64,000 nt of DNA from Spirochaetia bacterium (GTDB lineage: Bacteria > Spirochaetota > Spirochaetia > SP-2023): contig CBDDCK010000005.1 in NCBI GenBank assembly GCA_965225855.1, forward strand, positions 1,061,509 through 1,125,508, read 5' to 3'. The notes beneath the pieces were generated by a model that saw only the letters and a list, made by a program, of their open reading frames with translations, did no database searches and was not told the DNA's origin. Both the position numbers and the translations under genes were made by a program. The first letter of the stretch is position 1. Every line of letters begins with the position of its first letter. This document shows positions 1 through 33,454 of the stretch, one piece after another.

Positions 1-586
1 TAGTGCGAGTCGGATAGATACATTTTATCGGCATAAAAGATAAAACAGCAAAAATAGTCAGTATCACTGTATTAAAAACTTTACCTGTACTGCCAAAAAC
101 TAAGAAATAGATCAGCAATATCCAAGCAGAAGGAAAACCACGAAAAAAATAATCTTGATCTGAAGACCCTAAAAACCCTTTTTTTGCACTATCAATATTG
201 GATTTCGCATCGCTGCGACAGAATTGATAAGTTGAAGCAATACAGATTAGACTGATAACCGCAATACCATAAATATTATGTGGTACCAATTGAGCCTCCC
301 ATACGATAAATGCGGGAATGATAGACCAAACTAAAAAATCAATAATATTATCGAGCAAACTGCCATCAATTTCGGAGAGCACTTTTTTGACCTGAACCCA
401 CCGAGCTAAGAGGCCATCAAATGCATCGACAAGGACGGCTATAACTAACAACAAATAAGCTTTATACCAGTTGTGCTCTGCAATGTATGTAAGAGAAAAA
501 ACGGCAAAGACAGCACCACTAGCAGTAAATAGGTGAACGATATAGGCAAGAGTTTTTTGTAGAGCAGAATAAGATATCAAAGCCAA
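1..586 (-). CDS. pcs: CDP-alcohol phosphatidyltransferase family protein, phosphatidylcholine-synthase-like; its 3' end runs off the window start
   Basis: My own minus-strand translation from a TTG at 586 (GGAG just upstream) gives LALISYSALQKTLAYIVHLFTASGAVF...VDAFDGLLARWVQVKKVLSEIDGSLLDNIIDF. This is DG-x2-AR-x12-G-x3-D-x3-D, the x12 variant of the CDP-alcohol transferase motif described for bacterial Pcs, in a multi-TM protein. It is absent from the ORF track (no ATG, no stop in the window). The start codon is uncertain. Confidence 0.6.
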   Translation of the reverse strand, partial: MALISYSALQKTLAYIVHLFTASGAVFAVFSLTYIAEHNWYKAYLLLVIAVLVDAFDGLLARWVQVKKVLSEIDGSLLDNIIDFLVWSIIPAFIVWEAQLVPHNIYGIAVISLICIASTYQFCRSDAKSNIDSAKKGFLGSSDQDYFFRGFPSAWILLIYFLVFGSTGKVFNTVILTIFAVLSFMPIKCIYPTRT

Positions 587-592
587 ATCTCC

Positions 593-1333
593 TTAATTTG
601 TTGATGTCGGATTTTTTTTGATATATTGAAACAATACACGGCCCCGAATTTGTTCAATACCTATCGCACCCCAGTAGGAAGAGTCATTGCCGATATTTCG
701 ATTATCGGACAATACAAAATATTCACCCTGACGCAATGTAACTTTTTCGGTATTACCCAGTAATGGCAAATTCTTAGGCCAGTTCCGAGTATTTTGCCCA
801 CCAGAAAGTATGATATAATTGTTATCAATCAGCTCAAATTCGGAAGTAAAGTATTGCATATTATTGTCACTAGGTTGAATCTGTGCAATATGGTTGGCCA
901 TGTAAATTGTATCACCGGGTATACCAATTACTCTGCGTACCATATATGGATTTTTGCCTAAATGCTTCATTTGGTTTAAATCGGCAATATTTAAAGTGAT
1001 AAAGCGGTATAGTGTATTGAGCCAATGCATTGCTATAGACAAAGGCTTATGGTAGGGTGCCGCCAATACTACAATTGTTCCGCGCGGGATTTTGCGATGA
1101 AAAGGGAGTACACTATTGGGCATACCAATAGAACTATAAAATAGATAACTATTTTGATTAATATTGGGCTCCATAGAAATACTTCGGACTTTTAGGGGCA
1201 CAAGAATACTATAAAAAAACAGATGTAGCATGTAGATACTAAAAATCACAATCACCAGCGGAATTTTGCGGTTGTTGTGGTTGAGAAAATTATTTTTGTT
1301 GTTTTTAGTAGACATCGGCAAATCTTGCATCAA
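593..1333 (-). CDS. lepB: Signal peptidase I
   Basis: N-terminal TM segment. Catalytic Ser box 'RSISMEPNI', 'RRVIGIPGDTI' box and 'SDNRNIGNDSSYWG' box, all typical of S26 peptidases. Confidence 0.85.
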   Translation of the reverse strand: MMQDLPMSTKNNKNNFLNHNNRKIPLVIVIFSIYMLHLFFYSILVPLKVRSISMEPNINQNSYLFYSSIGMPNSVLPFHRKIPRGTIVVLAAPYHKPLSIAMHWLNTLYRFITLNIADLNQMKHLGKNPYMVRRVIGIPGDTIYMANHIAQIQPSDNNMQYFTSEFELIDNNYIILSGGQNTRNWPKNLPLLGNTEKVTLRQGEYFVLSDNRNIGNDSSYWGAIGIEQIRGRVLFQYIKKNPTSTN

Positions 1334-1342
1334 AATAATTCA

Positions 1343-2398
1343 TTATTGAATCGTTTTTTTATCGTGGCGCGCCACGAAGTTTTGTGGTTCTAAACTACGA
1401 AAGCGGCTAAAAGGGGCCACAATATAGGTCAATCGGCCTTGTAAATCATCTTTATTGAGTATGCCAAACCACCTGCCATCATGCGAATGATCGCGATTGT
1501 CTCCAAATGGCTCAAAGTAAGCTGCTGGAATTGCATCACCTAAGCGGTCTGCGATAAAGCGGCTGCGAATCGCAACATCGTGGGGGCTACTTAAATATGC
1601 ATTGCGCACACGCTGCTCGTAAGAGCGATCCATGTTATAATAGTTGGTCTGATTAAATAATTTCATATTGCGTTGGGTTTCATAATGTAAGCTCAATTCT
1701 TTTTTTATGAATTTTTCACTGGAAAATTTTTTAGTTCCTGCCAAACGTATTTCTGGATAACCAGAAACGAAGCGCACCCTGTCTCCGCCAACGGCAATAA
1801 CACGCTTAACCAGCAACGGAGGTTGATAATTGTTGAAAGTGTATTGGTAATTTGGTTGTGAACTGGGGGCATAAAGCATTGGCTGGGAAGCTAGCCTCAC
1901 CGGAGGCTTAGGACTGTTTTCGTATGCTTTTAGGTCTAAATCCAACTTAGCAAATGTCAATAAAAAAACAACACGCTGGGCAATTAAAAACAGAGTATTA
2001 GGCCTACGATATTCAGGGGATATAAAGGGAATCACTGTCCCGCGCACTACCTTTTTTTGCGAAAAAAATTTACGAGCAAAAGGGTAGGGTTCTAAACCAT
2101 AAGCCAATTTGTTGACAATAACGCGATCTTGTACTAACAAAGTGGGAACCATAGAACTTGAAGGAATCACGAATAATTGAAGCAAATATTGGTTGATAAG
2201 CAATACCGAAAGCAAAACCACCAACAAGACTTCAATCCAATCGCGCAATGCTGATATGCGTTGCTGGCGCAATTTTTGCCGGTATGTTTGGTAGCGGACA
2301 AAATTAATTAGTGCTTCTGTACTGCGCACCAAATATTTAGAAATAGAACTCATGTTCATGAAACAAAGTAATATAGCAAATTGGCTTTGTTTAGACAA
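1343..2398 (-). CDS. lepB: Signal peptidase I (second, longer paralogue)
   Basis: 'IPSSSMVPTLLVQDRVIVNK' (Ser box), 'VKRVIAVGGDRV' and 'GDNRDHSHDGRWFG' boxes. Sits in tandem with the downstream lepB. The true start may be an internal Met. Confidence 0.8.
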   Translation of the reverse strand: MSKQSQFAILLCFMNMSSISKYLVRSTEALINFVRYQTYRQKLRQQRISALRDWIEVLLVVLLSVLLINQYLLQLFVIPSSSMVPTLLVQDRVIVNKLAYGLEPYPFARKFFSQKKVVRGTVIPFISPEYRRPNTLFLIAQRVVFLLTFAKLDLDLKAYENSPKPPVRLASQPMLYAPSSQPNYQYTFNNYQPPLLVKRVIAVGGDRVRFVSGYPEIRLAGTKKFSSEKFIKKELSLHYETQRNMKLFNQTNYYNMDRSYEQRVRNAYLSSPHDVAIRSRFIADRLGDAIPAAYFEPFGDNRDHSHDGRWFGILNKDDLQGRLTYIVAPFSRFRSLEPQNFVARHDKKTIQ

Positions 2399-2533
2399 TA
2401 AAATAAGCTCTACTATTGGAAAGCTTATTTCAGTAGACTTACACTAATAGGCTTGTAATAACTGGTTAACAATATTATTGTGCTTATATAACCGGCCTAA
2501 ATTTTTTGAAAATCGATATTTAAGGAATCTTTC

Positions 2534-3349
2534 ATGAACATGGCAATCGATCTGATAAATGGGCAAAGTCGCCATTTAATTTCCTGGAATGTCAATGGTA
2601 TCCGAGCTATCCATAATAAGGGCTTACTCTCTCCATTGTTTGCAGGATCGTGGGATATTATTGCTCTGCAAGAGACAAAGGCCCAAGAATTGGATGAGGA
2701 ATTGGCCCAGCAGCCCGGGTATCAATCTTTTTGGTCTAGTGCCAAGCGCAAAGGTTATAGTGGCACGGCTCTGTTTATTAAAGATGACTTAAAACCGAAC
2801 CGCATTTTGTGTATGGAAAATATTATTGGCAAAAATGAATTTGATAGTGAAGGCCGAACCTTGATTGCCGATTTTGGCCATTTTGTTTTGCTGAATTGTT
2901 ATTTTCCCAACTCACAGGAAAAGGGTAAACGGCTGGATTATAAAATGGCTTTTAACCATGCGATACATTGCTGCTGTAATGAATTGAGCGAAAACCATAA
3001 GCGTCCGGTATTGCTTTGTGGTGATTATAATGTTGCAGTGCGCGAAATTGATTTAGCTCGGCCCGATGAGAATCATGATTCACCGGGCTTTTTGCCACAG
3101 GAGCGCGAATGGATGGAATATTTTTTAGCTAGCGGTTATAGTGATAGCTTTCGTCATTTTTATCCTGAACAAACAGGGGCTTATAGCTGGTGGTCCTACC
3201 GCACGCGAGCACGCGAGCGCAATGTGGGCTGGCGGATTGATTATTTTTGCATCAATCAGCCATTTTTGCATTGCCTTAAAGACGCGGCTGTTCTTGACCA
3301 AGCGATGGGTAGTGACCATTGCCCGGTTTGCATTACTGCCGAGCTGTAA
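2534..3349 (+). CDS. xth: Exodeoxyribonuclease III (AP endonuclease, EEP family)
   Basis: 'SWNVNGIRA', 'LQETK', 'GYSGTALF', 'CYFPN', 'GDYNVA', 'WWSYR', 'GWRIDY' and 'GSDHCPV' motifs in the canonical order. Confidence 0.9.
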   Translation: MNMAIDLINGQSRHLISWNVNGIRAIHNKGLLSPLFAGSWDIIALQETKAQELDEELAQQPGYQSFWSSAKRKGYSGTALFIKDDLKPNRILCMENIIGKNEFDSEGRTLIADFGHFVLLNCYFPNSQEKGKRLDYKMAFNHAIHCCCNELSENHKRPVLLCGDYNVAVREIDLARPDENHDSPGFLPQEREWMEYFLASGYSDSFRHFYPEQTGAYSWWSYRTRARERNVGWRIDYFCINQPFLHCLKDAAVLDQAMGSDHCPVCITAEL

Positions 3350-3740
3350 AAATCCAAGTTAAAAATTATGGTGAAAAGTGGCGAGAATATTTTGGGTAAA
3401 ACTATTTAAAAAAGCTGCTTTGGCCCATTTGGATTCTACTGTTTTTTCTTATACAAATATTTATTTCCAAACTATTTATGCTCAGAGTGTCCCTATTTGA
3501 AAAAATATACTATTACCAAAATTTATTTTAAGGGCGGAGCAGGATTAAATCGCTATTATATATTTTCTTTTTTAGGGTTTGAAGAAGGTAATACTTTTAT
3601 CCCAAGTTACCCCAAGCGAGCTAAACCAAAAACTCAAAGATAGTCGCTGGCTTTTGCGTAGCCAATGGTATTGGTATTTTCGGTATTTTCAAGCAGATTT
3701 TGAAACGCGTTAGTATCCTGAAGGCCGAGTAGAAATTTTT

Positions 3741-4526
3741 GTGCTACTAGAGTCTAGCTCTAAACGTTTCGGTTCTAAGTCCGATGAACATTCGTTTCTC
3801 TGGTTTCACCGGCAGACGCAATCCCTTGCAGTGCATTTCGCTTCCAAGTGGGCAAAATTACCAGGCCTATCTTGGTATTTTCCGCGCATTGATAATAGCT
3901 TTTTTGGTACAAATATTGTGATAGTGGAAGTCCAAACCCAAAAATTTTTAGAACGTTTCAACTTAGATGAGTTGGGGCTTACGGTATTTTGGCTGCGTGG
4001 TGGTGCCGAAGAATTTATCCAAACAAGCCCAGTGGTTAAGTTGGGCCTTTCCCAAAAATATTGGTTGATTTTGGACTTAGATGGTTTTGGTTTGATTTTT
4101 GATTTTATTATTGGGGCTTTTGTCGATTTAGATGGATTGTATTTATTGAAGAGCCGACTTTGGGCTATGAAATTTGGGTTGCAATTTGATGTTGGGGTTA
4201 TTGCTGGTTTATTTTTGTTACAAAGCAAATATAGGCTGTTACTGCGCCCCAGCCCTTGGTTGGAACTCTCTTTATTGAGCAACATTATAAGTAGCTTAAA
4301 TATTGGAAGTCTTAACTCTGAAATATCTAGTATAAACTTAGAGGATAATGATGTAGATTTTTATGCCTTAGGCCGTTTTAGAACCACTTCTCAACTTTCG
4401 CAAAACGATTATGACAACCGCACCGAATTTAATGTTGGGTTGGAAGGTAAATTGGGCCTTTCTGCTGGTTTGTTCAATAATTCAAGTTTATCTTTGAGTT
4501 TCTCCGCTTTTTTAGCAACATTGTAA
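3741..4526 (+). CDS. Hypothetical protein; possibly the remnant of a beta-barrel outer-membrane protein gene
   Basis: GTG-initiated 261-aa ORF with alternating hydrophobic beta-strand-like stretches (WAMKFGLQFDVGVIAGLF, FNVGLEGKLGLSAGLF). The 3368-3740 region upstream reads like the same kind of protein but is broken by stops. Its 3' end overlaps the effector gene on the opposite strand by 118 nt. Weak call. Confidence 0.25.
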   Translation: MLLESSSKRFGSKSDEHSFLWFHRQTQSLAVHFASKWAKLPGLSWYFPRIDNSFFGTNIVIVEVQTQKFLERFNLDELGLTVFWLRGGAEEFIQTSPVVKLGLSQKYWLILDLDGFGLIFDFIIGAFVDLDGLYLLKSRLWAMKFGLQFDVGVIAGLFLLQSKYRLLLRPSPWLELSLLSNIISSLNIGSLNSEISSINLEDNDVDFYALGRFRTTSQLSQNDYDNRTEFNVGLEGKLGLSAGLFNNSSLSLSFSAFLATL

Positions 4527-7500
4527 GCAGCGACTTTATCAGGGTCATTGATTTCATCGCTGATTTGTTCTTTATGTATATCTAAAATATTTTCGGTGTC
4601 AAAACCACAAGATTTATCATGTTTGCCACAAATATATTGATGCTTTGTAAACTTTAAATGGTTTTTTTCTTCTTCTCGATAAACCCATTCATTTTCACAA
4701 TAAGGACAGTTATCACTGGTTTGTTTTTCACTGGTAAAAATAATGGCTCCGTATTGATCTATATGTTTTATAATAATATCACTTTTTTTTGATTTATACT
4801 CTTTATTCTTATCTCCCCAACCTTTATCTTTCTTCAATTGCTCTAATTGCTCTAAAGCAAGTTCCCTTTCTCTTACCTTAAGTTCCCTAATCTCAATCAA
4901 ATCCTTAATATGCGGTGGGACAAAGCCTTTGGTTTGAAATTTTTGGAATAAAGCATACTCTAATCGCCGTGAAATATTGATATACAAATCTTGAAAATGC
5001 TTATCAATCATGTCTCTACTCAAGTCTTCTAAGACGATAAACCCGGGATATTTATCTTGTACGGAATATTTATCTTGTAGAAAAGAGATAACCCCAATCA
5101 TATTCGCTACCAAAGCATCTCGAAGATGATTGATTTTATTAGCACTTGGTTTATGCTCACTTCTATCGGTTGCTTGAAGTTCTTGCAAAAACTCTTCAAA
5201 GCGTTGTTTAATATCTTCTTTGGTATAGGTGTAGTCTTTTAATTCTAAGCCCTCATATTCTTTTTCCCAATAATAAAAAGGTTTACCATCTATTTTGAGA
5301 TGAACGCCTTTATCATCTTCCCAATCGCTTATGCAAGAATTTTCATTGTAGTTTTCAAAAATGATTTTTTTAGCAGCTTCTTTTTTGAGTTTTAAGTAAG
5401 TGAAAACATCACCATTTAAAATGATTTTATCTTTGATCACTTTAGCTTTTGTAAGATCAATGAAGGCAAGATTTTTTTGCTCAAACAAATCATCTCTATC
5501 TATTCTATCTATGAAATAAGAAAGATTATTAAAAATTCTTCTTTCTTTTATATTATCAAAATTGACCATTTTATGGCTTGGTTTTTCTTTGGTATTATAA
5601 AAATCTTTTCTCAGTTCATAGCATTTGATATCTTGCTCTTCAATTGGAAAAGTTGGTTTTAATATTTCTTGTTTTTCTTTTTTATTTTTATCATAAAGAT
5701 ATTTATTGTCTTGATTAAACTTAGCAATGCACAAAGTTGCTAATTCGATATTCCCTCTATCTATGCCATATTTGTAAAAAGTATCCCAGTTTTGGTTGTT
5801 AAAATCTCTATTAAAATCTTTGATTTTCTCTTCTATTTCTTCTGCTTTGGCAAAGGCTAAATCTGTATGTAGGGAGTTTGGATTCAGTGTAAAAGTAGTA
5901 GTAAGAGTGAATTGGTCACGACATTTTCTATTATCTGAATAATTATTAGTTGATAAATAGTTATGCTCTGTATGATCTTTTCTCCTAAAATTAATTTTCA
6001 TTTCAGGGTTTAATCTGATTGTATCGTTATTGGTAGTATTCCAAAAATCAAGCCACATTTTAGTATGTCTTCTGTTTTGGCTCTTTGGTGTTTGGTATTC
6101 ATTTTGATTTCTTTTTTCTAAGTCATAAGAAGTGATCTTAAAAACGACAATATCAAATTTTTTCATCAAATCATCTCTTGTTTTTTGATTTAAGCCAAAC
6201 GCTTTCATTTTATAAAGCGAATTCATCTCTTTTTCAAATGTTTCATTATCTTTTGCATTTAATACTTTGCTCAAATCAAAGTCAGATAAGTCTAAAATAG
6301 ACTGTGCATAAGCTGTTTCTAAAATGCCTTGCATAAATTCCAATTCATATTCGGCTTTTGATTTATCACAAGGTTTTTTATTTTTATGATTATTTTTTCT
6401 ATTTTGTAACTCATTCTTATCATTGGTGGCTTCTTTGCTATCAGAATGAATTTTCAATAATTTGTGCAATGCCCTTTTGGTAAGAGTATCCCGCACATAT
6501 TCATACATATCTTTAAGCCCCTTAATAAAAGTACTCTCTTCGGCAAAGCATAGTTTGTGCAATGCCCTTTTGGTAAGAGATGAGATAAAATGTAATTGAT
6601 AGTCTTCATTAGTTTGTGAGCTGGTTAATTTTTCTAATTCTTTTCTCAACGCTTGCATCTTTTCTTTTGGTATCAGCCATAAGAAATCTTCATTTTTATT
6701 TTTATTTTTGCCAATTCCTATCCAATATCTATTTTGTTCTGCTTCTAATTGTTGTTTTTCTAAATTTTTACTACTTGCTTTTATCTTGCCATACTGCATA
6801 GCAATAGTTTTGTAGCTATCTATAAATTCTACCCAATTTTTAAAATAATCATTAAAAACTTTCTTGTTTTGTTTTCTATCAAACCAAGACCTTTTAATTA
6901 GATAATCTCCTCGTTTTTGTTTGGGGGTTTTCTCTTGATTGCTTTTATCACCTTTGTTTTTGTTTTTATCAATTTGTTTTGTTAATAGGATACATTTTTC
7001 TATAAAGCCTAAGCCTTTATCTTGAAAAAAGTAATACTTATTTTCCAGATTATCAGTTTGTTTTTGGCAATCTTCAAAGAACTGGCTTTTCATTTTAGCT
7101 TTCAAATCTTGCATCAAAAATTTTATTTCTTCAATTGTGAAACTAATTTTATTCTCTGGAGATTGTTTAATCAGATTGTATTCATCTAAAAAACTTGATT
7201 CTTCTTTGGATTTAAAGCAAATTTCTTTATCCTTATTATCTTTCTTAAAAATTGGTATCGTTAAAGTTTTTTTATCTTTATCATAACAAGCTATTTTCTC
7301 ATCTTGTCGATCTTCTAATTTTTTAATCTCACCATCAAAATACTCTTTAGATTTTTTATTCACGGTGTAGTAGTTCATACTACCACCTGCTAAACAAATC
7401 CCTGCAGTTTGAAAAGGTAAATAATTTTCTTGTAAAGCGAGCCATTCTTTTTCAAGTTCCTTAATCTTTTTATAAAGCCTGTTTATCTCTTCACTTTTAT

Positions 7501-8017
7501 GTTTATGATTTAAGTTCTGTAAAAAGTCTCTAATCAAGAATAAATATTTTTTTGAACAAAACTCATTGATTAGAAAAGCAATTTCACTGTTTCGCTCTTT
7601 TTCATTTTGATTTTTTGAAAGTAATTCTTTGATTTTATTTAAAAGTTTTTCTATGATTAAAAGTTCTCCTGATTTATTACCATTATTATTAATGAATAAT
7701 TCAAATAATTTATCTTTTAAATACGATACTTTTTCAACAAAATATTCTTTCTTTTTATGCTGTGCATAAAAGTCATTCTTAAAATAATTTTTCAAAAAAT
7801 CTTTCTTTATAATCAAAAGAGAATTTATTTTTATTTTTTTCTCATCTTCATAAAAAAATAATTCTTTTAAAGATTTGAAAAATTTTTCTGTTTCAATAAT
7901 CAATTCTTTCTCATTTATCTCTTTTATTTTTGGGAGGCTTAAATCTCCTTGAATCTTTTCTAATTTAAATCGTGTTGATTTTGTGTAAGTATATTTGTAT
8001 TTGTTAAAGTCTTTCAT
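4409..8017 (-). CDS. Second type V (Cas12-family) effector, 1,202 aa, with Cas12a2-like architecture
   Basis: N-terminal 'KSTRFKLEKIQG' matches Cas12a 'KTLRFELKPIG'. 'ITSYDL..RHTKMWLDFW..RLNPEMKINFRRK' matches Cas12a 'IYNKDFS..NLHTIFWKALF..KLNGQAELFFRK'. RuvC-I is 'YGIDRGN' (D753, nt 5759-5761), RuvC-II is 'FIVLEDLS' (E997, nt 5027-5029) and RuvC-III is 'DPDKVAAYNVAKK' (D1160, nt 4538-4540). A Cys4 ribbon, C1104-x2-C1107...C1130-x6-C1137, sits between RuvC-II and RuvC-III. The start lies 40 nt after the cas12a stop, with an AAAGGA RBS. Confidence 0.75.
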   Translation of the reverse strand: MKDFNKYKYTYTKSTRFKLEKIQGDLSLPKIKEINEKELIIETEKFFKSLKELFFYEDEKKIKINSLLIIKKDFLKNYFKNDFYAQHKKKEYFVEKVSYLKDKLFELFINNNGNKSGELLIIEKLLNKIKELLSKNQNEKERNSEIAFLINEFCSKKYLFLIRDFLQNLNHKHKSEEINRLYKKIKELEKEWLALQENYLPFQTAGICLAGGSMNYYTVNKKSKEYFDGEIKKLEDRQDEKIACYDKDKKTLTIPIFKKDNKDKEICFKSKEESSFLDEYNLIKQSPENKISFTIEEIKFLMQDLKAKMKSQFFEDCQKQTDNLENKYYFFQDKGLGFIEKCILLTKQIDKNKNKGDKSNQEKTPKQKRGDYLIKRSWFDRKQNKKVFNDYFKNWVEFIDSYKTIAMQYGKIKASSKNLEKQQLEAEQNRYWIGIGKNKNKNEDFLWLIPKEKMQALRKELEKLTSSQTNEDYQLHFISSLTKRALHKLCFAEESTFIKGLKDMYEYVRDTLTKRALHKLLKIHSDSKEATNDKNELQNRKNNHKNKKPCDKSKAEYELEFMQGILETAYAQSILDLSDFDLSKVLNAKDNETFEKEMNSLYKMKAFGLNQKTRDDLMKKFDIVVFKITSYDLEKRNQNEYQTPKSQNRRHTKMWLDFWNTTNNDTIRLNPEMKINFRRKDHTEHNYLSTNNYSDNRKCRDQFTLTTTFTLNPNSLHTDLAFAKAEEIEEKIKDFNRDFNNQNWDTFYKYGIDRGNIELATLCIAKFNQDNKYLYDKNKKEKQEILKPTFPIEEQDIKCYELRKDFYNTKEKPSHKMVNFDNIKERRIFNNLSYFIDRIDRDDLFEQKNLAFIDLTKAKVIKDKIILNGDVFTYLKLKKEAAKKIIFENYNENSCISDWEDDKGVHLKIDGKPFYYWEKEYEGLELKDYTYTKEDIKQRFEEFLQELQATDRSEHKPSANKINHLRDALVANMIGVISFLQDKYSVQDKYPGFIVLEDLSRDMIDKHFQDLYINISRRLEYALFQKFQTKGFVPPHIKDLIEIRELKVRERELALEQLEQLKKDKGWGDKNKEYKSKKSDIIIKHIDQYGAIIFTSEKQTSDNCPYCENEWVYREEEKNHLKFTKHQYICGKHDKSCGFDTENILDIHKEQISDEINDPDKVAAYNVAKKAEKLKDKLELLNKPAERPNLPSNPTLNSVRLS

Positions 8018-8057
8018 TTTTATTCCTTTTAATTTTTATTTTAAAGTTTTATCAAGA

Positions 8058-11000
8058 TCAAGATTTATTTTCAATAGTTAACCACTTATCTTTTTGCTTT
8101 TTCACCAATTCTTCTTGTTGTGCAAAAGATTGCCAATCTGTTTTGAATACATCAATTCTCAATTTACCATCTTCTTTTTTATCTTCTGTGATATTTTGCA
8201 AGATGATAATCCCTTTTCTGGCAATATTATATGCACCATTAGCATCAGAATCTTGAGGAAGAAGAGCATCTTTAGAAGCATAATCTTTAAGTTTTCTACT
8301 ATCGTAAAAAGGTTCAACAGGAGAAACAATAAAATCACTCTCTGCGTTATGGGTGTAAATTGTGTGAATGACTTTCCCTACATCATTTTTAATTTCTTGT
8401 TTTTCAGCTTTGCTATTATCCGTTACTCGCATATCTAAAAGGCGATTAAAATGAGCTATAATTTTTGCAAGTAGTTTATTTTCTTTATAGTCTTCTGCTT
8501 TTGATTTTTTACAAATTATTTCTTTAATATCCAAATCTTTTGTAAGTGTAATTTCCTGTTCATTAAAAAGTTTTTTCAATTCTTCATTGGTATCTACTAG
8601 TTTATGTGTGTTTTTGTCGTAAGTAGAGCGTTCTATACGGCTGTGAATTGTCCAAATTTTATCCAGTTTGGTTTCATCAAATTCTTTTTCGTCTTCATAA
8701 TTTCCTGTCTTACCTTTGAAATTTTTCAGGTTATACGAAAACTCAAAATGCTCTCCATTAAAAATGATGCTTTCAAACTTGCCAAAAAATTCTTGTGCCT
8801 GTTCTACATCTTTATATTTAGGATACAACGAACGCATATAGCCCGTAATTGGGTCGGTTTTTGAAGTATAACCAGCCGCGGTATAAAACAAAATTCCAGA
8901 TTGTTTTCCTAATTTTTGAAAACTCTCAAATTTATTAGAAAGTTGTAATGGCTTTAGGTAATGACCTGCCTTGTTTGAGTCTGTTTCTTTTTTGAATATT
9001 AAATAATTTAGTTTATCAATTAGGGCTTTCTCAAATTTTTGGTAAATCTGTTTTTCTACCTTAAATCTTCCTCGTTTAAAACCAGAATTTAAATCCTCCA
9101 GAACAACAATAGCATTATGTTTTACAATCAATTGACTCAATTGATGCACTACTTGGGAAAGATACCCTGCTTTTAATTCTTTAATGTTTTCAATAGTTTC
9201 CCAGTTTTCTCTTGCACCTGCGCGTTCTTTTTCTTTGGTGTCAAGTTTTGCATGATAGTCAATTTCTTTGGTAAATTTTGTACCTTCTTTTTCATATTCA
9301 TTTTTAATAATATTCCAACTGCCTTGCTCTAAAATATCACCATCTTGATTGATAACCGAGTAATACAGTAAATTTCGCTCACCCCTATCAATACCAATAA
9401 TCTTGACATCTTTGTTGTCTTTCAAAAATTCATTTACTTCTTGATTTAAGTAACTGCTACCTTGTGCTTTGAAATTACAAGTAATAGGACAATGAAATAA
9501 AATTTTATCCTCACTATATCTTTTGTCTTTAGTAATTTCTTGATTTTTATTAGTAATAATTTTGCCGATAATCGTATCCTTATATTGTACCAGCTTATAT
9601 TTTGTATGTTCACACTCCTTATAAGTAATATTATCTTTGCCCTTCAGGTCATCTTCAATATTTTGTTCAGTTATAGGTAACCCTAACTCTTTCCATTCTT
9701 TAGCATATTGCTTGTGTTTTAGAATAGTACCTACTTTATGGACAAAAAGATTCTTTATATTTATAGATGCTTTTCTAAAAAATAATTCTGCTTGACCGTT
9801 TAATTTATAAACGACATCTTTTAAGTTCTCTTCCTCAAAAAGTGCTTTCCAAAAGATAGTATGAAGATTATCAGTTCCTTTCTTTGTTTTCTCTTTAGAA
9901 AAATCTTTGTTGTATATTTCAAAAAGGTAGAGTTTTTCTTCTCCTACACATTGATCGATATAATTTTCACTGATATTAGTAAAAGATATTTTATAAATAC
10001 AGTGAGATAATTTATTATAAAATTTATCTAAAGATTCATATTCTTTTTCAAATAAGTTCTTGTAATCATATTCAGCTTCTGCTGTGCTAGCATAACTTTC
10101 TAAAAATGATTTACAAAATTTAATCCAAGTATTCAATGCTTCTTGATACTCTTTTTTGTAACGTGTCATCTCATTTTCAATTTTAGTAATAGTTTCTTTA
10201 TGTTCTAAAAATTTATTTAAATCCGTTTTTGATATTGCTGGATTCTCTATTTTTGATTCAGTCTCAAGTTTAAATTTAATCTCATTTTCTCTTATCTGCA
10301 AATATTCTTTTTGAAACTTTTTGGGTCTTGTATCTTCTGATTTTCTAGGCACAAATTCTTTTTTTGATTTATCATATACAGTGTTGTTGAGTTCAAAAAC
10401 TTGTTTTGTGATTTCCAAGTTTGATGAAAATTTTCCCTCGCTTGATTCTTTTTCAATAAGAAATGAAGTGTCGTTTTTATCAAAATGCTTTTTTACTTCT
10501 GAACGTTGAGTGGAACACTTAGGAATCATTGTAGTTCCATCTTTAAAAAATTTATAAACTACTTTTTTATATTGCTGACCTTCTTTTTTAATAAGTTTCA
10601 AGTTGGATAATTCTTTTTCCAAATTCAATAACTTATCGCTCTCTTGTTTATGTCCTTTTGTTCCTTGTTTTTTATTCGCTAATTTCTCCTTTTGTTTTTG
10701 AATCTCTTTACATTTGTTTTCAATAGCTACTTTATTTTCATCATCACCGCTATTTTTAAAGATCGTACTATGCGCTTTATCCATTACAGCCAGATAATAT
10801 TTATTATCCTTTAATAATAGGGCACAGGTATTATCAGTTTCTTTATTTTTATCCCACCCATCAGCAAGGGTTGCATTTTCAAAATTGAGTTTAAATTTTT
10901 CTACACTATATGGTTTTTGTGTGAGGTAGTTTCTGACTTGGTCATAGAGTGTGTTTATTTGTGATAAGTTGTCGTAAATTTTATCAAATTCACTATAAAA

Positions 11001-12764
11001 AGCATTATCTTTTTCAAATAAATTTTGTTTTTTCTCATCGCTCTTTTTGATTTTTACGACCAATGGCTTTAAGAAAAATTGCAATTGTTTGATACTGTCT
11101 AAATAGTTTTTAATTTTTAAAACATCTTCTTTATTGTTTTTTAATTCTTGCTCTTCATTATTGTATTTTTCTAAAATACAATTAATTTTGGAATTTGATT
11201 TAATATTTTCTAAAATGTCAATTGTTCGATGATTTTCTTTATCTGTAATTTTAAGACTTTCAAAATATGTAATCAAAGGCTTATTTATAGTTTTATTTTT
11301 GAGCTCATCTGTAATCTCATCACTTTCATAGTTTTTAGTATAAAACTCCAAAGCATTGTGAATCTTTTCAAGAGAAAAATAATCTTTTTTGAGTTCTTTT
11401 TCTCTTTGTTTTTCTGTAAATCTTTTCGGGTTGTTGTTTTTATCTTTGCCTAATAACTCATTTTTAAAATAATACACTAAAGCACTTTTATGATATTGCC
11501 CAAAAATTTCTTGTGAAATATCGGTAATAGCTTTATCATTTTTGATATAAACTTTGGATAAATCTGCCTGCTCTTTTAATATAGTAAAGATATTTTTATC
11601 GCAAGTAGATTTTAATCTCTCTGTGATGTTAAAATGTTCTTCCCCATTATAATAAAATAAATTGTCATTTTCAAAAGTAAAGCGTTGTAAATCCTCACAT
11701 AATTCAGCATCTGATTTGATACCCTCTAAACGAAATGAGCTACCTTCTCTATCGCTTAAAATCTGTTTGAAAAGCTCTTGCATTTTGCAGGAATAAGTAT
11801 CTTTTTTCTTTTCTTGCTCTTTTTTATCATTTTCTTCTAAGCCTTTCTTTTGTGACAAAACAGGGAACAAAAGATGCTCAGCTTTTTTATCATCTCCCTC
11901 TAAGCCTTTCTTTTGTGAGACTAATCGCTGACCTGCTAAATTGATAATCTCGTTGAAGCCTTTGATTTTTGTATTTTTATCAATAGTTTTTCCACCAATA
12001 ACTTGGTTATATTTATCAATTCCACTTTGAGTTAAACATTGATTAAAGTATTCTAACTTGAAAACACTGTCTAAACTTTCAATTTTTAAATCATCTAAAT
12101 TTTCTTTTAATTTAGAAAAATCAATATTGAGTTTCTTTGCGTTCTCATAGCATTCTAAATTCTCTAAAAACTTGGGTAAATTTTCGTGAATGAGTCTATA
12201 ACCAATCGCCGTAGAGTGTTCTTTTTCTGTGTAAATATTCTTTCTGTTCTCTTCAAAACCTCCAAAGTAAGTTGTCCAGCCTTTGAACTTTGTGATAATC
12301 TCTATTTTATGTTTATGGTCTAAATCTTGACCATTTTGGTATCGCTTTTTTAACCACGAGATAAGGATACTTTCAATAAACTCTTTTCCAAATGGCTCTT
12401 TATCAGTTTTAAAAATTTCACCTTTGGCATTGGAAAGTTTTTTGCGTAATTGACCTTGTATTGATTCTAAACTCTTTTGAAGTGTTTTATTTTTCTTATC
12501 GCTTTTAAGTTTTGAATAGATCTCTTTAAAATTTTTTAATTCTTTAACATCAAAAGCAAAATTTTTCAAACCCTCATTGATAAACCATTTATGATATTCA
12601 TCAATGATTTTTTTGGCTTCTTTATAGTCTTTTGCTCGTTGCTCATCTTTGCTAATGAGACCTTTATTGTTGATATGCTCAAGTGTTTTTCCAATAGGTT
12701 TTAACTCAAATCGTAGGGTTTTATCTACAGAATATTTATTTGTAAATTTTTCAAACATCTCCAT
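8058..12764 (-). CDS. cas12a: Cas12a (Cpf1), type V-A effector, unusually long at 1,568 aa
   Basis: 'KTLRFELKPIGKT' N-terminus, 'NLHTIFWKALF', 'KLNGQAELFFRK'. RuvC-I 'IGIDRGERNLLY' (D1126), RuvC-II 'VVLEDLNSGFKRGR' (E1223), 'YTSKTDPITGY', RuvC-III 'DSDANGAYNIARKG' (D1507). Adjacent to an array whose repeat ends in the canonical Cas12a handle. Confidence 0.97.
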   Translation of the reverse strand: MEMFEKFTNKYSVDKTLRFELKPIGKTLEHINNKGLISKDEQRAKDYKEAKKIIDEYHKWFINEGLKNFAFDVKELKNFKEIYSKLKSDKKNKTLQKSLESIQGQLRKKLSNAKGEIFKTDKEPFGKEFIESILISWLKKRYQNGQDLDHKHKIEIITKFKGWTTYFGGFEENRKNIYTEKEHSTAIGYRLIHENLPKFLENLECYENAKKLNIDFSKLKENLDDLKIESLDSVFKLEYFNQCLTQSGIDKYNQVIGGKTIDKNTKIKGFNEIINLAGQRLVSQKKGLEGDDKKAEHLLFPVLSQKKGLEENDKKEQEKKKDTYSCKMQELFKQILSDREGSSFRLEGIKSDAELCEDLQRFTFENDNLFYYNGEEHFNITERLKSTCDKNIFTILKEQADLSKVYIKNDKAITDISQEIFGQYHKSALVYYFKNELLGKDKNNNPKRFTEKQREKELKKDYFSLEKIHNALEFYTKNYESDEITDELKNKTINKPLITYFESLKITDKENHRTIDILENIKSNSKINCILEKYNNEEQELKNNKEDVLKIKNYLDSIKQLQFFLKPLVVKIKKSDEKKQNLFEKDNAFYSEFDKIYDNLSQINTLYDQVRNYLTQKPYSVEKFKLNFENATLADGWDKNKETDNTCALLLKDNKYYLAVMDKAHSTIFKNSGDDENKVAIENKCKEIQKQKEKLANKKQGTKGHKQESDKLLNLEKELSNLKLIKKEGQQYKKVVYKFFKDGTTMIPKCSTQRSEVKKHFDKNDTSFLIEKESSEGKFSSNLEITKQVFELNNTVYDKSKKEFVPRKSEDTRPKKFQKEYLQIRENEIKFKLETESKIENPAISKTDLNKFLEHKETITKIENEMTRYKKEYQEALNTWIKFCKSFLESYASTAEAEYDYKNLFEKEYESLDKFYNKLSHCIYKISFTNISENYIDQCVGEEKLYLFEIYNKDFSKEKTKKGTDNLHTIFWKALFEEENLKDVVYKLNGQAELFFRKASINIKNLFVHKVGTILKHKQYAKEWKELGLPITEQNIEDDLKGKDNITYKECEHTKYKLVQYKDTIIGKIITNKNQEITKDKRYSEDKILFHCPITCNFKAQGSSYLNQEVNEFLKDNKDVKIIGIDRGERNLLYYSVINQDGDILEQGSWNIIKNEYEKEGTKFTKEIDYHAKLDTKEKERAGARENWETIENIKELKAGYLSQVVHQLSQLIVKHNAIVVLEDLNSGFKRGRFKVEKQIYQKFEKALIDKLNYLIFKKETDSNKAGHYLKPLQLSNKFESFQKLGKQSGILFYTAAGYTSKTDPITGYMRSLYPKYKDVEQAQEFFGKFESIIFNGEHFEFSYNLKNFKGKTGNYEDEKEFDETKLDKIWTIHSRIERSTYDKNTHKLVDTNEELKKLFNEQEITLTKDLDIKEIICKKSKAEDYKENKLLAKIIAHFNRLLDMRVTDNSKAEKQEIKNDVGKVIHTIYTHNAESDFIVSPVEPFYDSRKLKDYASKDALLPQDSDANGAYNIARKGIIILQNITEDKKEDGKLRIDVFKTDWQSFAQQEELVKKQKDKWLTIENKS

Positions 12765-12781
12765 ATAAACTCCTGCACGCT

Positions 12782-12810
12782 AGTATAGTTATTTCATTTG
12801 TCAAGCTCAA
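12782..12810 (-). promoter_or_regulatory. Candidate sigma70 promoter for cas12a, between the last repeat and the start codon
   Basis: Minus strand reads TTGAGC (12810-12805), 17 nt, TATACT (12787-12782), then AGGAG 5 nt before the ATG at 12764. Sequence pattern only. Confidence 0.4.
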
Positions 12811-12831
12811 TAACTTTAACATAATTATTTA

Positions 12832-15800
12832 ATCTACAACAGTAGAAATTAAATAGTGTCCTTAGACTCTTCTTCTCTGCTGTATATTTTTTTGTAAAAT
12901 CTACAACAGTAGAAATTAAATAGTGTCCTTAGACCAAACCACCCAAACATTCAACCCTTCAATCTACAACAGTAGAAATTAAATAGTGTCCTTAGACTTA
13001 CTCAACATCCTAGTCTGCTACAATCTACAACAGTAGAAATTAAATAGTGTCCTTAGACTCTTCTTCTCTGCTGTATATTTTTTTGTAAAATCTACAACAG
13101 TAGAAATTAAATAGTGTCCTTAGACCAAACCACCCAAACATTCAACCCTTCAATCTACAACAGTAGAAATTAAATAGTGTCCTTAGACTTACTCAACATC
13201 CTAGTCTGCTACAATCTACAACAGTAGAAATTAAATAGTGTCCTTAGACTCTTCTTCTCTGCTGTATATTTTTTTGTAAAATCTACAACAGTAGAAATTA
13301 AATAGTGTCCTTAGACCAACGAAGCCCTAGCCGAAGCCAACGATCTACAACAGTAGAAATTAAATAGTGTCCTTAGACTATGATATGGACAGAAGAAGAT
13401 GATGATATCTACAACAGTAGAAATTAAATAGTGTCCTTAGACGAATAACAACGGCGAGATCGCCGTAATCTACAACAGTAGAAATTAAATAGTGTCCTTA
13501 GACGAAAATAGCTAAGGGAATAGCTATAGAGATCTACAACAGTAGAAATTAAATAGTGTCCTTAGACAGCCCTATGGTGATTGCTACAGGCCTATCTACA
13601 ACAGTAGAAATTAAATAGTGTCCTTAGACAGCCCTATGGTGATTGCTACAGGCCTATCTACAACAGTAGAAATTAAATAGTGTCCTTAGACAAAATAGCA
13701 AACGATGCCGTGGTCGCAATCTACAACAGTAGAAATTAAATAGTGTCCTTAGACACGTTAATTTGCCCGATTATTGTAAAAATCTACAACAGTAGAAATT
13801 AAATAGTGTCCTTAGACACCGTATAATGCAATTGCATGATTGATTATCTACAACAGTAGAAATTAAATAGTGTCCTTAGACACCGTATAATGCAATTGCA
13901 TGATTGATTATCTACAACAGTAGAAATTAAATAGTGTCCTTAGACCATATTGCCACTCAAAAACAATTTTAACTATCTACAACAGTAGAAATTAAATAGT
14001 GTCCTTAGACAGTCTATTGTTCGTCTGTCTTGGAGGGAATCTACAACAGTAGAAATTAAATAGTGTCCTTAGACCACTCCTCCAGCACACACACTCCTCC
14101 AGATCTACAACAGTAGAAATTAAATAGTGTCCTTAGACGGATTCATAGTCAGCCTCAAAATGGGATCTACAACAGTAGAAATTAAATAGTGTCCTTAGAC
14201 AATGAAATCTTCCCATTGATCCCATAAATCTACAACAGTAGAAATTAAATAGTGTCCTTAGACGCCAACAGCAATAAAATAGCAATGTTCATCTACAACA
14301 GTAGAAATTAAATAGTGTCCTTAGACCCTGTGTATCTTGGTGAAGATTATTCATCTACAACAGTAGAAATTAAATAGTGTCCTTAGACGCGTTTTATCCG
14401 TGTAGGAATCTACAATCTACAACAGTAGAAATTAAATAGTGTCCTTAGACAACTCATCCCAGCGACCCTGATAGCCATCTACAACAGTAGAAATTAAATA
14501 GTGTCCTTAGACAATACTCATTATAAATAAGGTTATACGCTATCTACAACAGTAGAAATTAAATAGTGTCCTTAGACTGTATCTGTATAGACAATCTAAG
14601 GTCAATCTACAACAGTAGAAATTAAATAGTGTCCTTAGACTCTATATTCATCCCAACGTCCTTGATAACATCTACAACAGTAGAAATTAAATAGTGTCCT
14701 TAGACATGTCAATTACCATAATCCCTTTAGTATCTACAACAGTAGAAATTAAATAGTGTCCTTAGACCAAATGCAGTGCTCTTTTTTTTTTAATCTACAA
14801 CAGTAGAAATTAAATAGTGTCCTTAGACTCTGGATGAACACATACGAACTAGTTATCTACAACAGTAGAAATTAAATAGTGTCCTTAGACACTGTTGCAC
14901 AAGGCCTCCCAATTTTATCTACAACAGTAGAAATTAAATAGTGTCCTTAGACATGTCTAATGAAATAAAACAATACAATATCTACAACAGTAGAAATTAA
15001 ATAGTGTCCTTAGACCGGTTGTATAGCTTTGCATTGGGCAGCCATCTACAACAGTAGAAATTAAATAGTGTCCTTAGACCCCTAAGCATAAGAGCACTAT
15101 TCAATACTATCTACAACAGTAGAAATTAAATAGTGTCCTTAGACTTACGCCATTACATTGGGCCGCGCGCAAATCTACAACAGTAGAAATTAAATAGTGT
15201 CCTTAGACATTATCTTAATATATCCAAGGGGCTATAATCTACAACAGTAGAAATTAAATAGTGTCCTTAGACACAGCCCCATCTAGGAAATCCATTTAAT
15301 CTACAACAGTAGAAATTAAATAGTGTCCTTAGACAACAGATTCAAAAATCCCTTTTTATCTATCTACAACAGTAGAAATTAAATAGTGTCCTTAGACATC
15401 GGGCACGCCGTTTATTACCAATTATCTACAACAGTAGAAATTAAATAGTGTCCTTAGACGGAAAATGAATAAGTTTGCTTGTACTTAATCTACAACAGTA
15501 GAAATTAAATAGTGTCCTTAGACGGAAAATGAATAAGTTTGCTTGTACTTAATCTACAACAGTAGAAATTAAATAGTGTCCTTAGACATGGCAGGCGCAG
15601 AAGGAGACGCCCGTATCTACAACAGTAGAAATTAAATAGTGTCCTTAGACATTTTTATCCTATACCCGCAGCAGTAACAATCTACAACAGTAGAAATTAA
15701 ATAGTGTCCTTAGACCTTCAATCTGTTCTTCCATATACCACCTATCTACAACAGTAGAAATTAAATAGTGTCCTTAGACTGTCGTGATATTTACTACCAG

Positions 15801-30800: not shown

Positions 30801-33176
30801 ACGCCGAATCTACAACAGTAGAAATTAAATAGTGTCCTTAGACCGTCCAACGATAACGGATATAACGAAACATCTACAACAGTAGAAATTAAATAGTGTC
30901 CTTAGACATCATATCAATAATTTATATTCTTTAATCTACAACAGTAGAAATTAAATAGTGTCCTTAGACATTGAACGGCAAGCAGGCCTAAATAGTATCT
31001 ACAACAGTAGAAATTAAATAGTGTCCTTAGACATTAAAAGATGTTACTTTTGGCCAAAGTATCTACAACAGTAGAAATTAAATAGTGTCCTTAGACCTAG
31101 CACTAGCACTAGCACACAAACAATCTACAACAGTAGAAATTAAATAGTGTCCTTAGACTATACTACGAGGGCAGTCCTTTGTTCCCATCTACAACAGTAG
31201 AAATTAAATAGTGTCCTTAGACTCCGTCACACAAGGAAAAAACGATAGATCTACAACAGTAGAAATTAAATAGTGTCCTTAGACCTCCGAAACCTTAACA
31301 CCAGCAGACTTGATCTACAACAGTAGAAATTAAATAGTGTCCTTAGACAACCTTCACACCCATTCTCTACAATCATCTACAACAGTAGAAATTAAATAGT
31401 GTCCTTAGACTATTGCCATAAATGCCGATACTATAAATCTACAACAGTAGAAATTAAATAGTGTCCTTAGACTTCTGTAGCCTTGGATAAGGCTGCTTTA
31501 TCTACAACAGTAGAAATTAAATAGTGTCCTTAGACCCTTTTAGGGTGCTTGGGGGACTGGTATAATCTACAACAGTAGAAATTAAATAGTGTCCTTAGAC
31601 ATAAATTGGAATTATAACATGCTATCTATCTACAACAGTAGAAATTAAATAGTGTCCTTAGACCAACCTGCCATCCTCACACAGCCCTAATCTACAACAG
31701 TAGAAATTAAATAGTGTCCTTAGACTCATAATCCTTATTAAATCTCTCTTTCTAATCTACAACAGTAGAAATTAAATAGTGTCCTTAGACTATATGGTTG
31801 CTATGAATAAACATACATATCTACAACAGTAGAAATTAAATAGTGTCCTTAGACCGAAAAGTTAAGTATGGAAGAACTAAAAATCTACAACAGTAGAAAT
31901 TAAATAGTGTCCTTAGACTTCTCGCCACCTGCAAGCAATTCAATATCTACAACAGTAGAAATTAAATAGTGTCCTTAGACATTCCCCGCAGTCTTATAAG
32001 CACTGCCATCTACAACAGTAGAAATTAAATAGTGTCCTTAGACATACCAATATAAAACCTAAAAACAACCATCTACAACAGTAGAAATTAAATAGTGTCC
32101 TTAGACGACCCAATGGGTGCTGGTGCTAGTATGCTATCTACAACAGTAGAAATTAAATAGTGTCCTTAGACAATGCACAATCTGCAGGAAAGATTTATCT
32201 ACAACAGTAGAAATTAAATAGTGTCCTTAGACAGGCTCAATATAAGAATCGTGTTCTGATCTACAACAGTAGAAATTAAATAGTGTCCTTAGACCTGAAA
32301 TTCCAGCAAGTGCCCGCAAGAGGATCTACAACAGTAGAAATTAAATAGTGTCCTTAGACTTGGCACCAGCTAAACTACTGGAAATATATCTACAACAGTA
32401 GAAATTAAATAGTGTCCTTAGACTAGAAAATATTGCTACTTCCGAGAGAATCTACAACAGTAGAAATTAAATAGTGTCCTTAGACATATCGGCTTTAGAT
32501 GTTGGCTTTGGATCTACAACAGTAGAAATTAAATAGTGTCCTTAGACTTTAATAATTTATGTAAAATAAAATTATATCTACAACAGTAGAAATTAAATAG
32601 TGTCCTTAGACAAAAAACAAACACCCGAACAGCTTGCATCTACAACAGTAGAAATTAAATAGTGTCCTTAGACAACCTAAGGAAACAAGGAAACCTAAGA
32701 TCTACAACAGTAGAAATTAAATAGTGTCCTTAGACACTAACACAAGCAAGCATAAACAGGATCTACAACAGTAGAAATTAAATAGTGTCCTTAGACAAGA
32801 AATTGAAAATATTCTAATCTTAAATCTACAACAGTAGAAATTAAATAGTGTCCTTAGACATATCGACAACTTAAGAAAACACTTAAGATCTACAACAGTA
32901 GAAATTAAATAGTGTCCTTAGACAGATAATTCGCTTTTGGATTCATCTATATCTACAACAGTAGAAATTAAATAGTGTCCTTAGACAAGTCTAAATAATA
33001 ATTTGCCAGATTTAATCTACAACAGTAGAAATTAAATAGTGTCCTTAGACAGTTTTTTGAAGACCTTTCTGGTACGATCTACAACAGTAGAAATTAAATA
33101 GTGTCCTTAGACTTGAAGGAATTGAGGAGGGATGATAATAATCTACAACAGTAGAAATTAAATAGTGTCCTTAGAC
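12832..33176 (-). CRISPR. Type V-A CRISPR array, about 323 repeats and about 322 spacers (20,345 bp)
   Basis: The 36-nt repeat is ATCTACAACAGTAGAAATTAAATAGTGTCCTTAGAC on the plus strand. Its minus-strand form is GTCTAAGGACACTATTTAATTTCTACTGTTGTAGAT, ending in the canonical Cas12a 5' handle AAUUUCUACUGUUGUAGAU, so crRNAs come from the minus strand. Spacers are 25-34 nt (mean about 27). First repeat 12832-12867, last repeat 33141-33176. Counted by a manual walk, so possibly off by a few. I saw no variant repeat. Confidence 0.98.
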
Positions 33177-33196: not shown

Positions 33197-33454
33197 TTAT
33201 CGATTTTTACTATCGTAGCGGTCGATTTTTCCGCATAGCCCATATTTTTCAGAATACGCAAAAATAGACTGGAACATCGATTTTGCTGTGCTGTATTTTT
33301 GCTTATCAATATTTATGTGAGCAGCCAGTCCTCTGCGCTGGGGCTCTTCATGATAGAAGTAGGTTGAGGTCTGTCCGTACAGTTGGTGAAAATAGAGCGA
33401 CCTAGGGCAAAACATAAAATCATTTAGATATGAAATGGGAATATAACTTTCCAA
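33197..33454 (-). pseudogene. cas4: cas4 N-terminal fragment (about 85 codons), truncated just before the first CRISPR repeat
   Basis: 'ISYLNDFMFCPRSLYFHQLYG' (Cas4 N-terminal Cys region) and '...YGLCGKIDRYD' (RecB-like motif II region), then a stop. The rest of the RecB nuclease core and the C-terminal Cys cluster are missing. The ORF ends 21 nt from repeat 33141-33176. TTG start. Confidence 0.7.

Follow-up and report, generated by a model that had tools for sequence, protein, structure and literature searches.

A Cas12a3-clade effector of the BdCas12a3-like branch encoded behind cas12a in a spirochaete genome

The 64,000-nucleotide stretch of DNA analysed here (the window; positions 1,061,509 to 1,125,508 of contig CBDDCK010000005.1, assembly GCA_965225855.1, from a Spirochaetia bacterium) contains a CRISPR locus with two effector genes arranged in tandem on the minus strand. 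The second of these genes, located directly behind cas12a, is the subject of this work. It spans positions 4409-8017, starts with ATG and encodes a protein of 1,202 residues (the window protein). The gene begins 40 nt after the cas12a stop codon on the same strand, in agreement with the initial annotation of this DNA, which had taken the product for a second, divergent Cas12a-related effector, either a Cas12a2 orthologue or a separate type V lineage. The general description stands, and the window protein is placed in the Cas12a3 clade, outside the canonical Cas12a models; it is neither a Cas12a2 orthologue nor a new type V lineage. Two papers of 2026 (Dmytrenko et al., Nature, PMC12851939; Li et al., Nucleic Acids Research, PMC13594972) described Cas12a3, alongside a sister clade, Cas12a4. 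Cas12a3 proteins are type V nucleases both guided and activated by RNA; they cut tRNAs at the 3' CCA tail and halt growth while leaving DNA undamaged (PMC12851939, PMC13594972), and structures of Ba1Cas12a3/BaCas12a3 are available (PDB 9HLX, 9HM4-6, 21WE, 21WJ). The gene, the spacer in front of it and the functional positions of its product, including those for the PFS (protospacer-flanking sequence) as well as for CRISPR RNA (crRNA) processing, are located as follows.

4409-8017, minus strand: cas12a3-type effector gene of the BdCas12a3-like branch, 1,202 residues (open reading frame, PDB sequence matches, profiles, trees, Foldseek)
8018-8057, minus strand: intergenic spacer of 40 nt with an AAAGGA ribosome-binding site (sequence)
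6554-6580, minus strand: PFS-interacting motif S480-T482-K488 (SLTKRALHK), aligned with Ba1Cas12a3 S469/T471/K477 and family-invariant
5927-5929, minus strand: codon of Arg697, the predicted pre-crRNA processing residue, aligned with SuCas12a2 R785 and Ba1Cas12a3 R658 and invariant
5759-5761, minus strand: codon of RuvC-I Asp753, family-invariant, aligned with Ba1Cas12a3 D712
5228-5338, minus strand: short element (residues 894-930) in place of the 106-residue tRNA-loading domain of Ba1Cas12a3 (alignments, model)
5027-5029, minus strand: codon of RuvC-II Glu997, family-invariant, aligned with Ba1Cas12a3 E1032
4607-4708, minus strand: zinc ribbon with Cys1104, Cys1107, Cys1130 and Cys1137, all four family-invariant
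4538-4540, minus strand: codon of RuvC-III Asp1160, family-invariant, aligned with Ba1Cas12a3 D1137

The assignment to the Cas12a3 clade is made because sequence, profile, tree and fold all agree. A sequence search of the PDB retrieves two proteins only, the 'Cas12a3 binary complex' (21we) and Ba1Cas12a3 (9hlx), at E values of about 1e-52, and SuCas12a2 is not among the matches even at E≤10. The window protein was further compared with 16 published reference sequences, taken from the supplementary FASTA file of PMC12851939 and all agreeing in length with Table S1 of that paper. With phmmer, the closest published sequence is BdCas12a3 from a Bdellovibrionales metagenome-assembled genome (MAG), with a score of 454 bits, followed by the Rb2, Sm2, MG60_9, Ba1 and Ba4 Cas12a3 proteins with 177-243 bits. 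At E≤10, three Cas12a2 proteins, five Cas12a4 proteins, LbCas12a and the neighbouring Cas12a give no match, the last of which bears out the earlier remark that the two adjacent effectors share little similarity. Profiles built for each published group give 549 bits for Cas12a3, 31 bits for Cas12a2, 6 bits for Cas12a4 and no score for Cas12a, and the Cas12a3 profile contained no Bd-like member.

The trees lead to the same placement. In a neighbour-joining tree calculated from 1,047 columns with 200 bootstraps and including Cas12a, Cas12a2 and Cas12a4 references, the window protein belongs to the Cas12a3 clade with 100% bootstrap support. Within this clade, BdCas12a3, the window protein and all 37 database homologues form one branch (95%), inside which the window protein joins a sub-branch of 13 members (94%) together with homologues P0002-P0011, P0013 and P0014, among them proteins from Woesearchaeota, Phycisphaerae and Spirochaetia MAGs. 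A second tree, to which the proteins of 20 genome loci were added, has the same topology, and Cas12a4 forms a separate clade in both trees. The protein thus groups with BdCas12a3 within the Cas12a3 clade as published; the two are only about 37% identical, and the window protein lies in the further sub-branch. The family is rare, with only 151 representatives at E≤1e-30 among 1.84 billion clusters of 50% identity. The closest relative is 56% identical by BLASTP, or 61% over the matched stretches in the cluster search. The published Cas12a3 FASTA file contains no N-terminal peptide of the window protein or of its 11 closest relatives, so these proteins lie outside the published data set; the window protein is a new member of an already published family.

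The fold comparison agrees with the sequence data. An AlphaFold2 model (residues 1-1183, built from a 32-sequence alignment) has a predicted local distance difference test score (pLDDT) of 75.4 and a predicted template modelling score (pTM) of 0.55. In Foldseek, it matches 9hlx (Ba1Cas12a3, E 3e-37) and 21we (BaCas12a3, E 7e-37) over the full length with TM-scores of 0.55-0.57, followed by SuCas12a2 (E 2.5e-21, TM-score 0.33) and Cas12a (E 1e-10, TM-scores 0.2-0.27). The domain plan is of the Cas12a2 type, in which a large insertion takes the position of the bridge helix and the Nuc domain gives way to a zinc ribbon (PMC9811890), features that are common to Cas12a2, Cas12a3 and Cas12a4. The distance between the RuvC-I Asp and the RuvC-II Glu is 244 residues in the window protein versus 97 residues in the neighbouring Cas12a; the earlier reading of this difference as an insertion replacing the bridge helix is correct. 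The zinc ribbon had also been recognised, as CPYC at residues 1104-1107 and C1130-x6-C1137, and its four Cys residues are invariant. The accompanying description of the neighbour's Nuc region as free of Cys does not hold, since that region has one Cys (C1418), with no CxxC pair.

The residues for catalysis, the zinc ribbon, PFS reading and crRNA processing are intact. D753, E997 and D1160 are present and aligned, as proposed from the sequence earlier, and, like the four Cys residues, do not vary across two family alignments with 25 and 32 members. The triad corresponds to D712/E1032/D1137 of Ba1Cas12a3, which are the residues mutated in PMC12851939. The N-terminal and WED-like landmarks are likewise found at the residues previously given, namely KSTRFKLEKIQG at 13-24, ITSYDL at 628-633, RHTKMWLDFW at 650-659 and RLNPEMKINFRRK at 668-680. 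The PFS-reading residues S480, T482, K488 and Y216 correspond to S469, T471, K477 and Y218 of BaCas12a3/Ba1Cas12a3 and are kept throughout the family; the PFS roles of S469, T471 and K477 in Cas12a3 are taken from PMC13594972. R697 is also the equivalent of R679, the crRNA-processing Arg of BaCas12a3, and the position next to it (K784 in SuCas12a2) is occupied by Asn, as in other Cas12a3 proteins. The PFS-domain motif LTKRALHKL occurs twice in the window protein, at residues 481-489 and 512-520 (window 6470-6580, minus strand). The second copy lies within a short insertion that is missing from all aligned relatives, suggesting a recent small duplication.

The shared domain plan raises the possibility that the window protein acts as Cas12a2 does, as a suicide nuclease that shreds double-stranded DNA, single-stranded DNA and RNA after RNA recognition. 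The two families are sister clades (98% bootstrap), the SuCas12a2 structures (PDB 8D49, 8D4A, 8D4B) are the second-best fold matches, and Cas12a2 has crRNAs in common with Cas12a and is known from cas12a-cas12a2 tandems. However, the window protein lies outside the Cas12a2 clade, and SuCas12a2 reaches only 18 bits against it with filters off. Moreover, the degradation of double-stranded DNA by SuCas12a2 requires two aromatic clamps, Y465/Y1080 and Y1069/F1092 (PMC9849127). A Cas12a2-specific segment of 24-30 residues after RuvC-II is missing from the window protein, as from all Cas12a3 proteins and including Ba1Cas12a3/BaCas12a3. Y1080 therefore aligns with a gap and Y1069 corresponds to M1003, which leaves both clamps incomplete, and F1008 and Y328 of the window protein align only loosely with the clamp residues. 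In addition, those Cas12a3 enzymes that have been tested act on RNA (tRNA tails), with neither DNA cleavage nor induction of the SOS response (PMC12851939, PMC13594972). The window protein is accordingly expected to spare DNA: indiscriminate DNA shredding is unlikely, and a Cas12a2-like role as a whole appears highly improbable.

With Ba1Cas12a3/BaCas12a3, the window protein shares the clade, the overall fold, the RuvC triad, the zinc ribbon, the PFS-reading residues, the processing Arg and an array of Cas12a-type repeats. Identity to these proteins is about 21%, and their T-arm loop in REC2 is not conserved. The two also differ at the tRNA-loading domain (tRLD), which defines tRNA-tail specificity in Ba1/BaCas12a3 and is carried by only about 35% of Cas12a3 homologues (PMC13594972). 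In the window protein this domain is replaced by the short element at residues 894-930, within which the model contains, with good confidence, a small beta-hairpin (residues 906-916, pLDDT 73-84). A short element at this position is also present in BdCas12a3 and in Sm3Cas12a3 from Smithella sp. M82 (38 residues), the latter being a member of the clade's second main part with about 31% identity to the window protein. Sm3Cas12a3 trims tRNA tails at the 3' end, requires CCA and arrests growth (PMC12851939). Since the domain is carried by about 35% of homologues and Sm3Cas12a3 trims tRNA with an element of 38 residues, the absence of the tRLD is compatible with Cas12a3 membership.

A different substrate preference has been found for RoiCas12a3 from Roizmanbacteria, which also lacks the tRLD, cuts the target single-stranded RNA and has strong general collateral RNase activity (PMC13594972). 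As a variant of the same family function, the window protein could behave in this way, with RNA recognition leading to cleavage of the target transcript and broad RNA degradation and with no preference for tRNAs. The replacing element of 29-37 residues has the size of that in Rb2Cas12a3, the Roizmanbacteria orthologue (31-35 residues), and the window protein does not keep the residues with which Ba1Cas12a3 contacts tRNA. On the other hand, the equally short element of Sm3Cas12a3 goes together with CCA-dependent tRNA trimming, and the trees place the window protein no closer to Rb2 than to Sm3. RoiCas12a3 is distant within the clade, and its target cutting and broad collateral activity may or may not apply here. 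We regard such a preference as the less likely outcome, yet one that deserves to be kept in mind.

The remaining elements of the locus are arranged in a rotated order on the minus strand, from the 171-residue open reading frame through the cas4 remnant, the array and cas12a to cas12a3.

33552-34067, minus strand: open reading frame of 171 residues, a possible remnant of a TPR accessory gene (weak matches, low confidence)
33197-33454, minus strand: cas4 remnant of 85 residues, with 49-57% identity to Cas4 residues 1-87 from related loci
12832-33176, minus strand: CRISPR array of 323 identical 36-nt Cas12a-type repeats and 322 spacers, the only array in the window
12782-12810, minus strand: promoter-like site between the array and cas12a, TTGAGC-17-TATACT (consensus scan, pattern match only)
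8058-12764, minus strand: cas12a, 1,568 residues, with the RuvC residues D1126/E1223/D1507 intact (TIGR04330, Pfam, motifs)

The array is co-oriented with both effector genes. Its repeat is GTCTAAGGACACTATTTAATTTCTACTGTTGTAGAT, and all 323 copies are identical, including both terminal ones. Among the 322 spacers, 286 are unique and thirty recur, mostly side by side. At the array's cas12a-proximal end, a block of three spacers recurs (spacers 316-322). One spacer measures 54 nt (no. 79) and another 34 nt (no. 140). Comparison of the spacers in 8 kb of the array with GenBank phages gave chance or repeat-driven matches only, and the spacers do not match the rest of the window.

The neighbouring protein is a true Cas12a, which matches TIGR04330 with 1,026 bits as well as the Pfam families REC1, REC2, RuvC_1 and NUC. 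It is unusually long at 1,568 residues, compared with about 1,230-1,320 residues in reference Cas12a proteins. The Cas12a partners of the closest Cas12a3 relatives are also long, with 1,556 residues in locus L005, where the protein is 52% identical to the window Cas12a, and 1,552 residues in locus L023. The promoter-like site upstream of cas12a is accompanied by TTGACA a few bases downstream of the scan match, and the promoter consensus scan as a whole yields no more sites than shuffled sequences do. Within the 40-nt spacer between the effector genes, no terminator-like site or hairpin was found on the minus strand.

A scan of representative genomes yielded 22 related loci, none of them from the window's own genome. 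Their hosts are Bdellovibrionales, Smithella, Spirochaetia, Candidatus Haliotispira, Gammaproteobacteria, Thermodesulfobacteriota, Phycisphaerae and archaea of the Woesearchaeota and Ainarchaeum. A full-length cas12a is directly adjacent to cas12a3 in 16 of them, usually immediately upstream on the same strand, and fragments or very short contigs account for two of the other six. The BdCas12a3 locus (L009) has the cas12a-cas12a3 tandem, the Sm3Cas12a3 gene lies directly behind cas12a (L018), and L023, from the window protein's own sub-branch, has cas12a beside cas12a3 in the usual gene order. In this order, cas12a is followed by cas12a3, in some cases by a TPR or ATPase gene, then by cas4, cas1 and cas2, and finally by the array. 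Moreover, all the related arrays have repeats of the Cas12a type; the 3' handle of the window repeat, AATTTCTACTNTTGTAGAT, recurs in those of 17 related loci, among them cas12a3 loci without cas12a (L006, L007 and L013). The presence of such repeats where cas12a is missing supports the use of Cas12a-type crRNAs by the window protein. The adjacency of cas12a in 16 of the 22 loci and in L023, together with arrays of Cas12a-type repeats, supports the reading of two effectors served by one array. The two-tier system suggested by the initial annotation is supported to this extent and is already published rather than new, since PMC9811890 reports pairing with Cas12a for Cas12a2 and PMC13594972 mentions it for Cas12a3. 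The indiscriminate destruction of DNA and RNA that formed part of the suggestion is a Cas12a2 trait and is not retained.

Several related loci carry additional genes. In L023, a Polbeta-type nucleotidyltransferase and a 147-residue open reading frame (9254-10008) lie between cas12a and cas12a3. L005 contains an AAA_14/DUF4143 ATPase gene (13617-14816), and L002 (13579-15591), L003 and L023 encode TPR proteins of 670-687 residues. Candidatus Haliotispira prima (L012, NZ_CP123443.1) has its own cas12a-cas12a3-cas4-cas1-cas2 locus with an array of 122 repeats. It is the closest named relative of the host; the SecA encoded in the window is 78% identical to its SecA, and the next matches are in Spirochaetales. 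A Bacteroidota host, to which weak Pfam matches to GldB_lipo and HU-HIG had pointed, is rejected on the strength of these SecA matches. The Cas12a3 of Candidatus Haliotispira prima shares only 32% identity with the window protein and belongs to a different sub-branch, which points to independent acquisitions of cas12a3 in the two organisms. In addition, the GC content of the effector genes (26-31%) and of the array (31-35%) is below that of the flanking housekeeping genes (38-46%), suggesting horizontal acquisition of the locus.

The adaptation module of the window locus is reduced. The cas4 remnant represents the N-terminal part of the gene and ends 20 nt before the first repeat (33141-33176). 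The 64-kb window contains no further part of cas4 and no cas1, cas2 or leader; the loss of cas1, cas2 and the leader distinguishes it from the BdCas12a3 locus. The array of 322 spacers thus appears to have no local means of acquiring new ones. The 171-residue open reading frame upstream of the cas4 remnant has weak similarity to the N and C termini of the 670-residue TPR protein of L002 and no Pfam match, and with low confidence may be an internally deleted remnant of a TPR accessory gene. The loss of cas1, cas2 and the leader, the cas4 fragment abutting the array and the foreign composition of the locus would fit a decaying system in which the effector, like the adjacent adaptation module, is an unused relic. 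We find this hard to reconcile with the rest of the locus and give it very little weight: both effector genes are full length, every family-invariant residue is kept, the 323 repeats do not differ from one another, cas12a3 is preceded by a ribosome-binding site and a promoter-like site lies upstream of cas12a.

Elsewhere in the window, two open reading frames of 159 and 261 residues downstream of cas12a3 have no Pfam match and no counterpart in the related loci. Two paralogous open reading frames of 368 residues on the plus strand (46216-47322 and 49055-50161) have weak matches to GldB_lipo and DUF2268, and overlapping open reading frames on both strands occupy 42.4-45.8 kb and 50.4-52.2 kb, where no Rfam family is found. 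Rfam searches of window positions 1-13,500 and 33,000-64,000 gave nothing.

On the basis of its tested relatives, we consider it likely that the window protein works as a RuvC ribonuclease triggered by RNA, uses crRNAs in common with Cas12a and arrests growth through cleavage of tRNA 3' ends, possibly of a wider range of RNA, as a back-up to DNA interference. The RNA triggering, the RNA and tRNA substrates, the growth arrest and the back-up role are extrapolated from these relatives. In such a mechanism, cas12a3 would probably be co-transcribed with cas12a, and, given the Cas12a-type repeats and the conserved processing Arg, the window protein would mature and bind the crRNAs of the single array that serve Cas12a as well. 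The guide would then pair with a complementary transcript bearing a purine-rich 3' flank as the PFS, unlike Cas12a. This pairing would open the RuvC site, and RNA would be cut in trans, with tRNA 3' ends as the likeliest substrate; the specificity is probably looser than that of Ba1Cas12a3 because the large tRNA-loading domain is missing. Translation would stop and the infected cell would cease to grow, providing a back-up to DNA cleavage by Cas12a that does not damage DNA.

Several observations weigh against this mechanism. Only 29-37 residues of the window protein occupy the columns of the 106-residue tRLD of Ba1Cas12a3 (residues 855-960). The tRNA contacts of Ba1Cas12a3 (R902, N924, K881 and K885) and its REC2 loop have no counterpart, and two alignments disagree on whether the invariant Y915 is equivalent to Y922 of Ba1Cas12a3. 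The tRNA specificity is thus uncertain, because RoiCas12a3 without the tRLD is a target-RNA cutter and a broad collateral RNase. The AlphaFold2 model has low confidence around the active site. Furthermore, the experimentally characterised Cas12a3 members all lie outside the Bd-like branch, and BdCas12a3 itself is an entry in the table and FASTA file of PMC12851939 only. Co-transcription and crRNA sharing in this organism we only infer.

A more speculative proposal, which we consider rather improbable, is that the Cas12a-paired, tRLD-less Bd-like branch follows a substrate rule of its own, distinct from both the tRNA-tail trimming of Ba1Cas12a3 and the promiscuity of RoiCas12a3. Under this proposal, the branch might also be an obligate second tier that fires only upon failure of Cas12a, caused for example by anti-CRISPR inhibition or escape mutants, and in the window would draw on a memory of 322 spacers that can no longer be updated locally.

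The window protein also illustrates how cas12a3 genes can escape recognition. It has no match in Pfam and NCBIfam searches, including TIGR04330, REC1, REC2, RuvC_1 and NUC. The PADLOC models labelled 'Cas12a' do match it (PDLC01230 with 525 bits and PDLC01232 with 494 bits), and neither of these two models matches the neighbouring true Cas12a. Because Pfam and NCBIfam offer no model and PADLOC gives the label 'Cas12a', such genes are easily mislabelled.

Our analysis adds a Cas12a3 that is full-length and apparently intact, encoded by a spirochaete with kinship to Candidatus Haliotispira. It belongs to a branch without the domain to which tRNA specificity is ascribed, and in which cas12a is directly adjacent in most related loci. 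This branch bears on whether tRNA-tail cleavage is general in Cas12a3 or confined to the members that carry the tRLD, and on how DNA-cutting and RNA-triggered effectors divide their work on one array.

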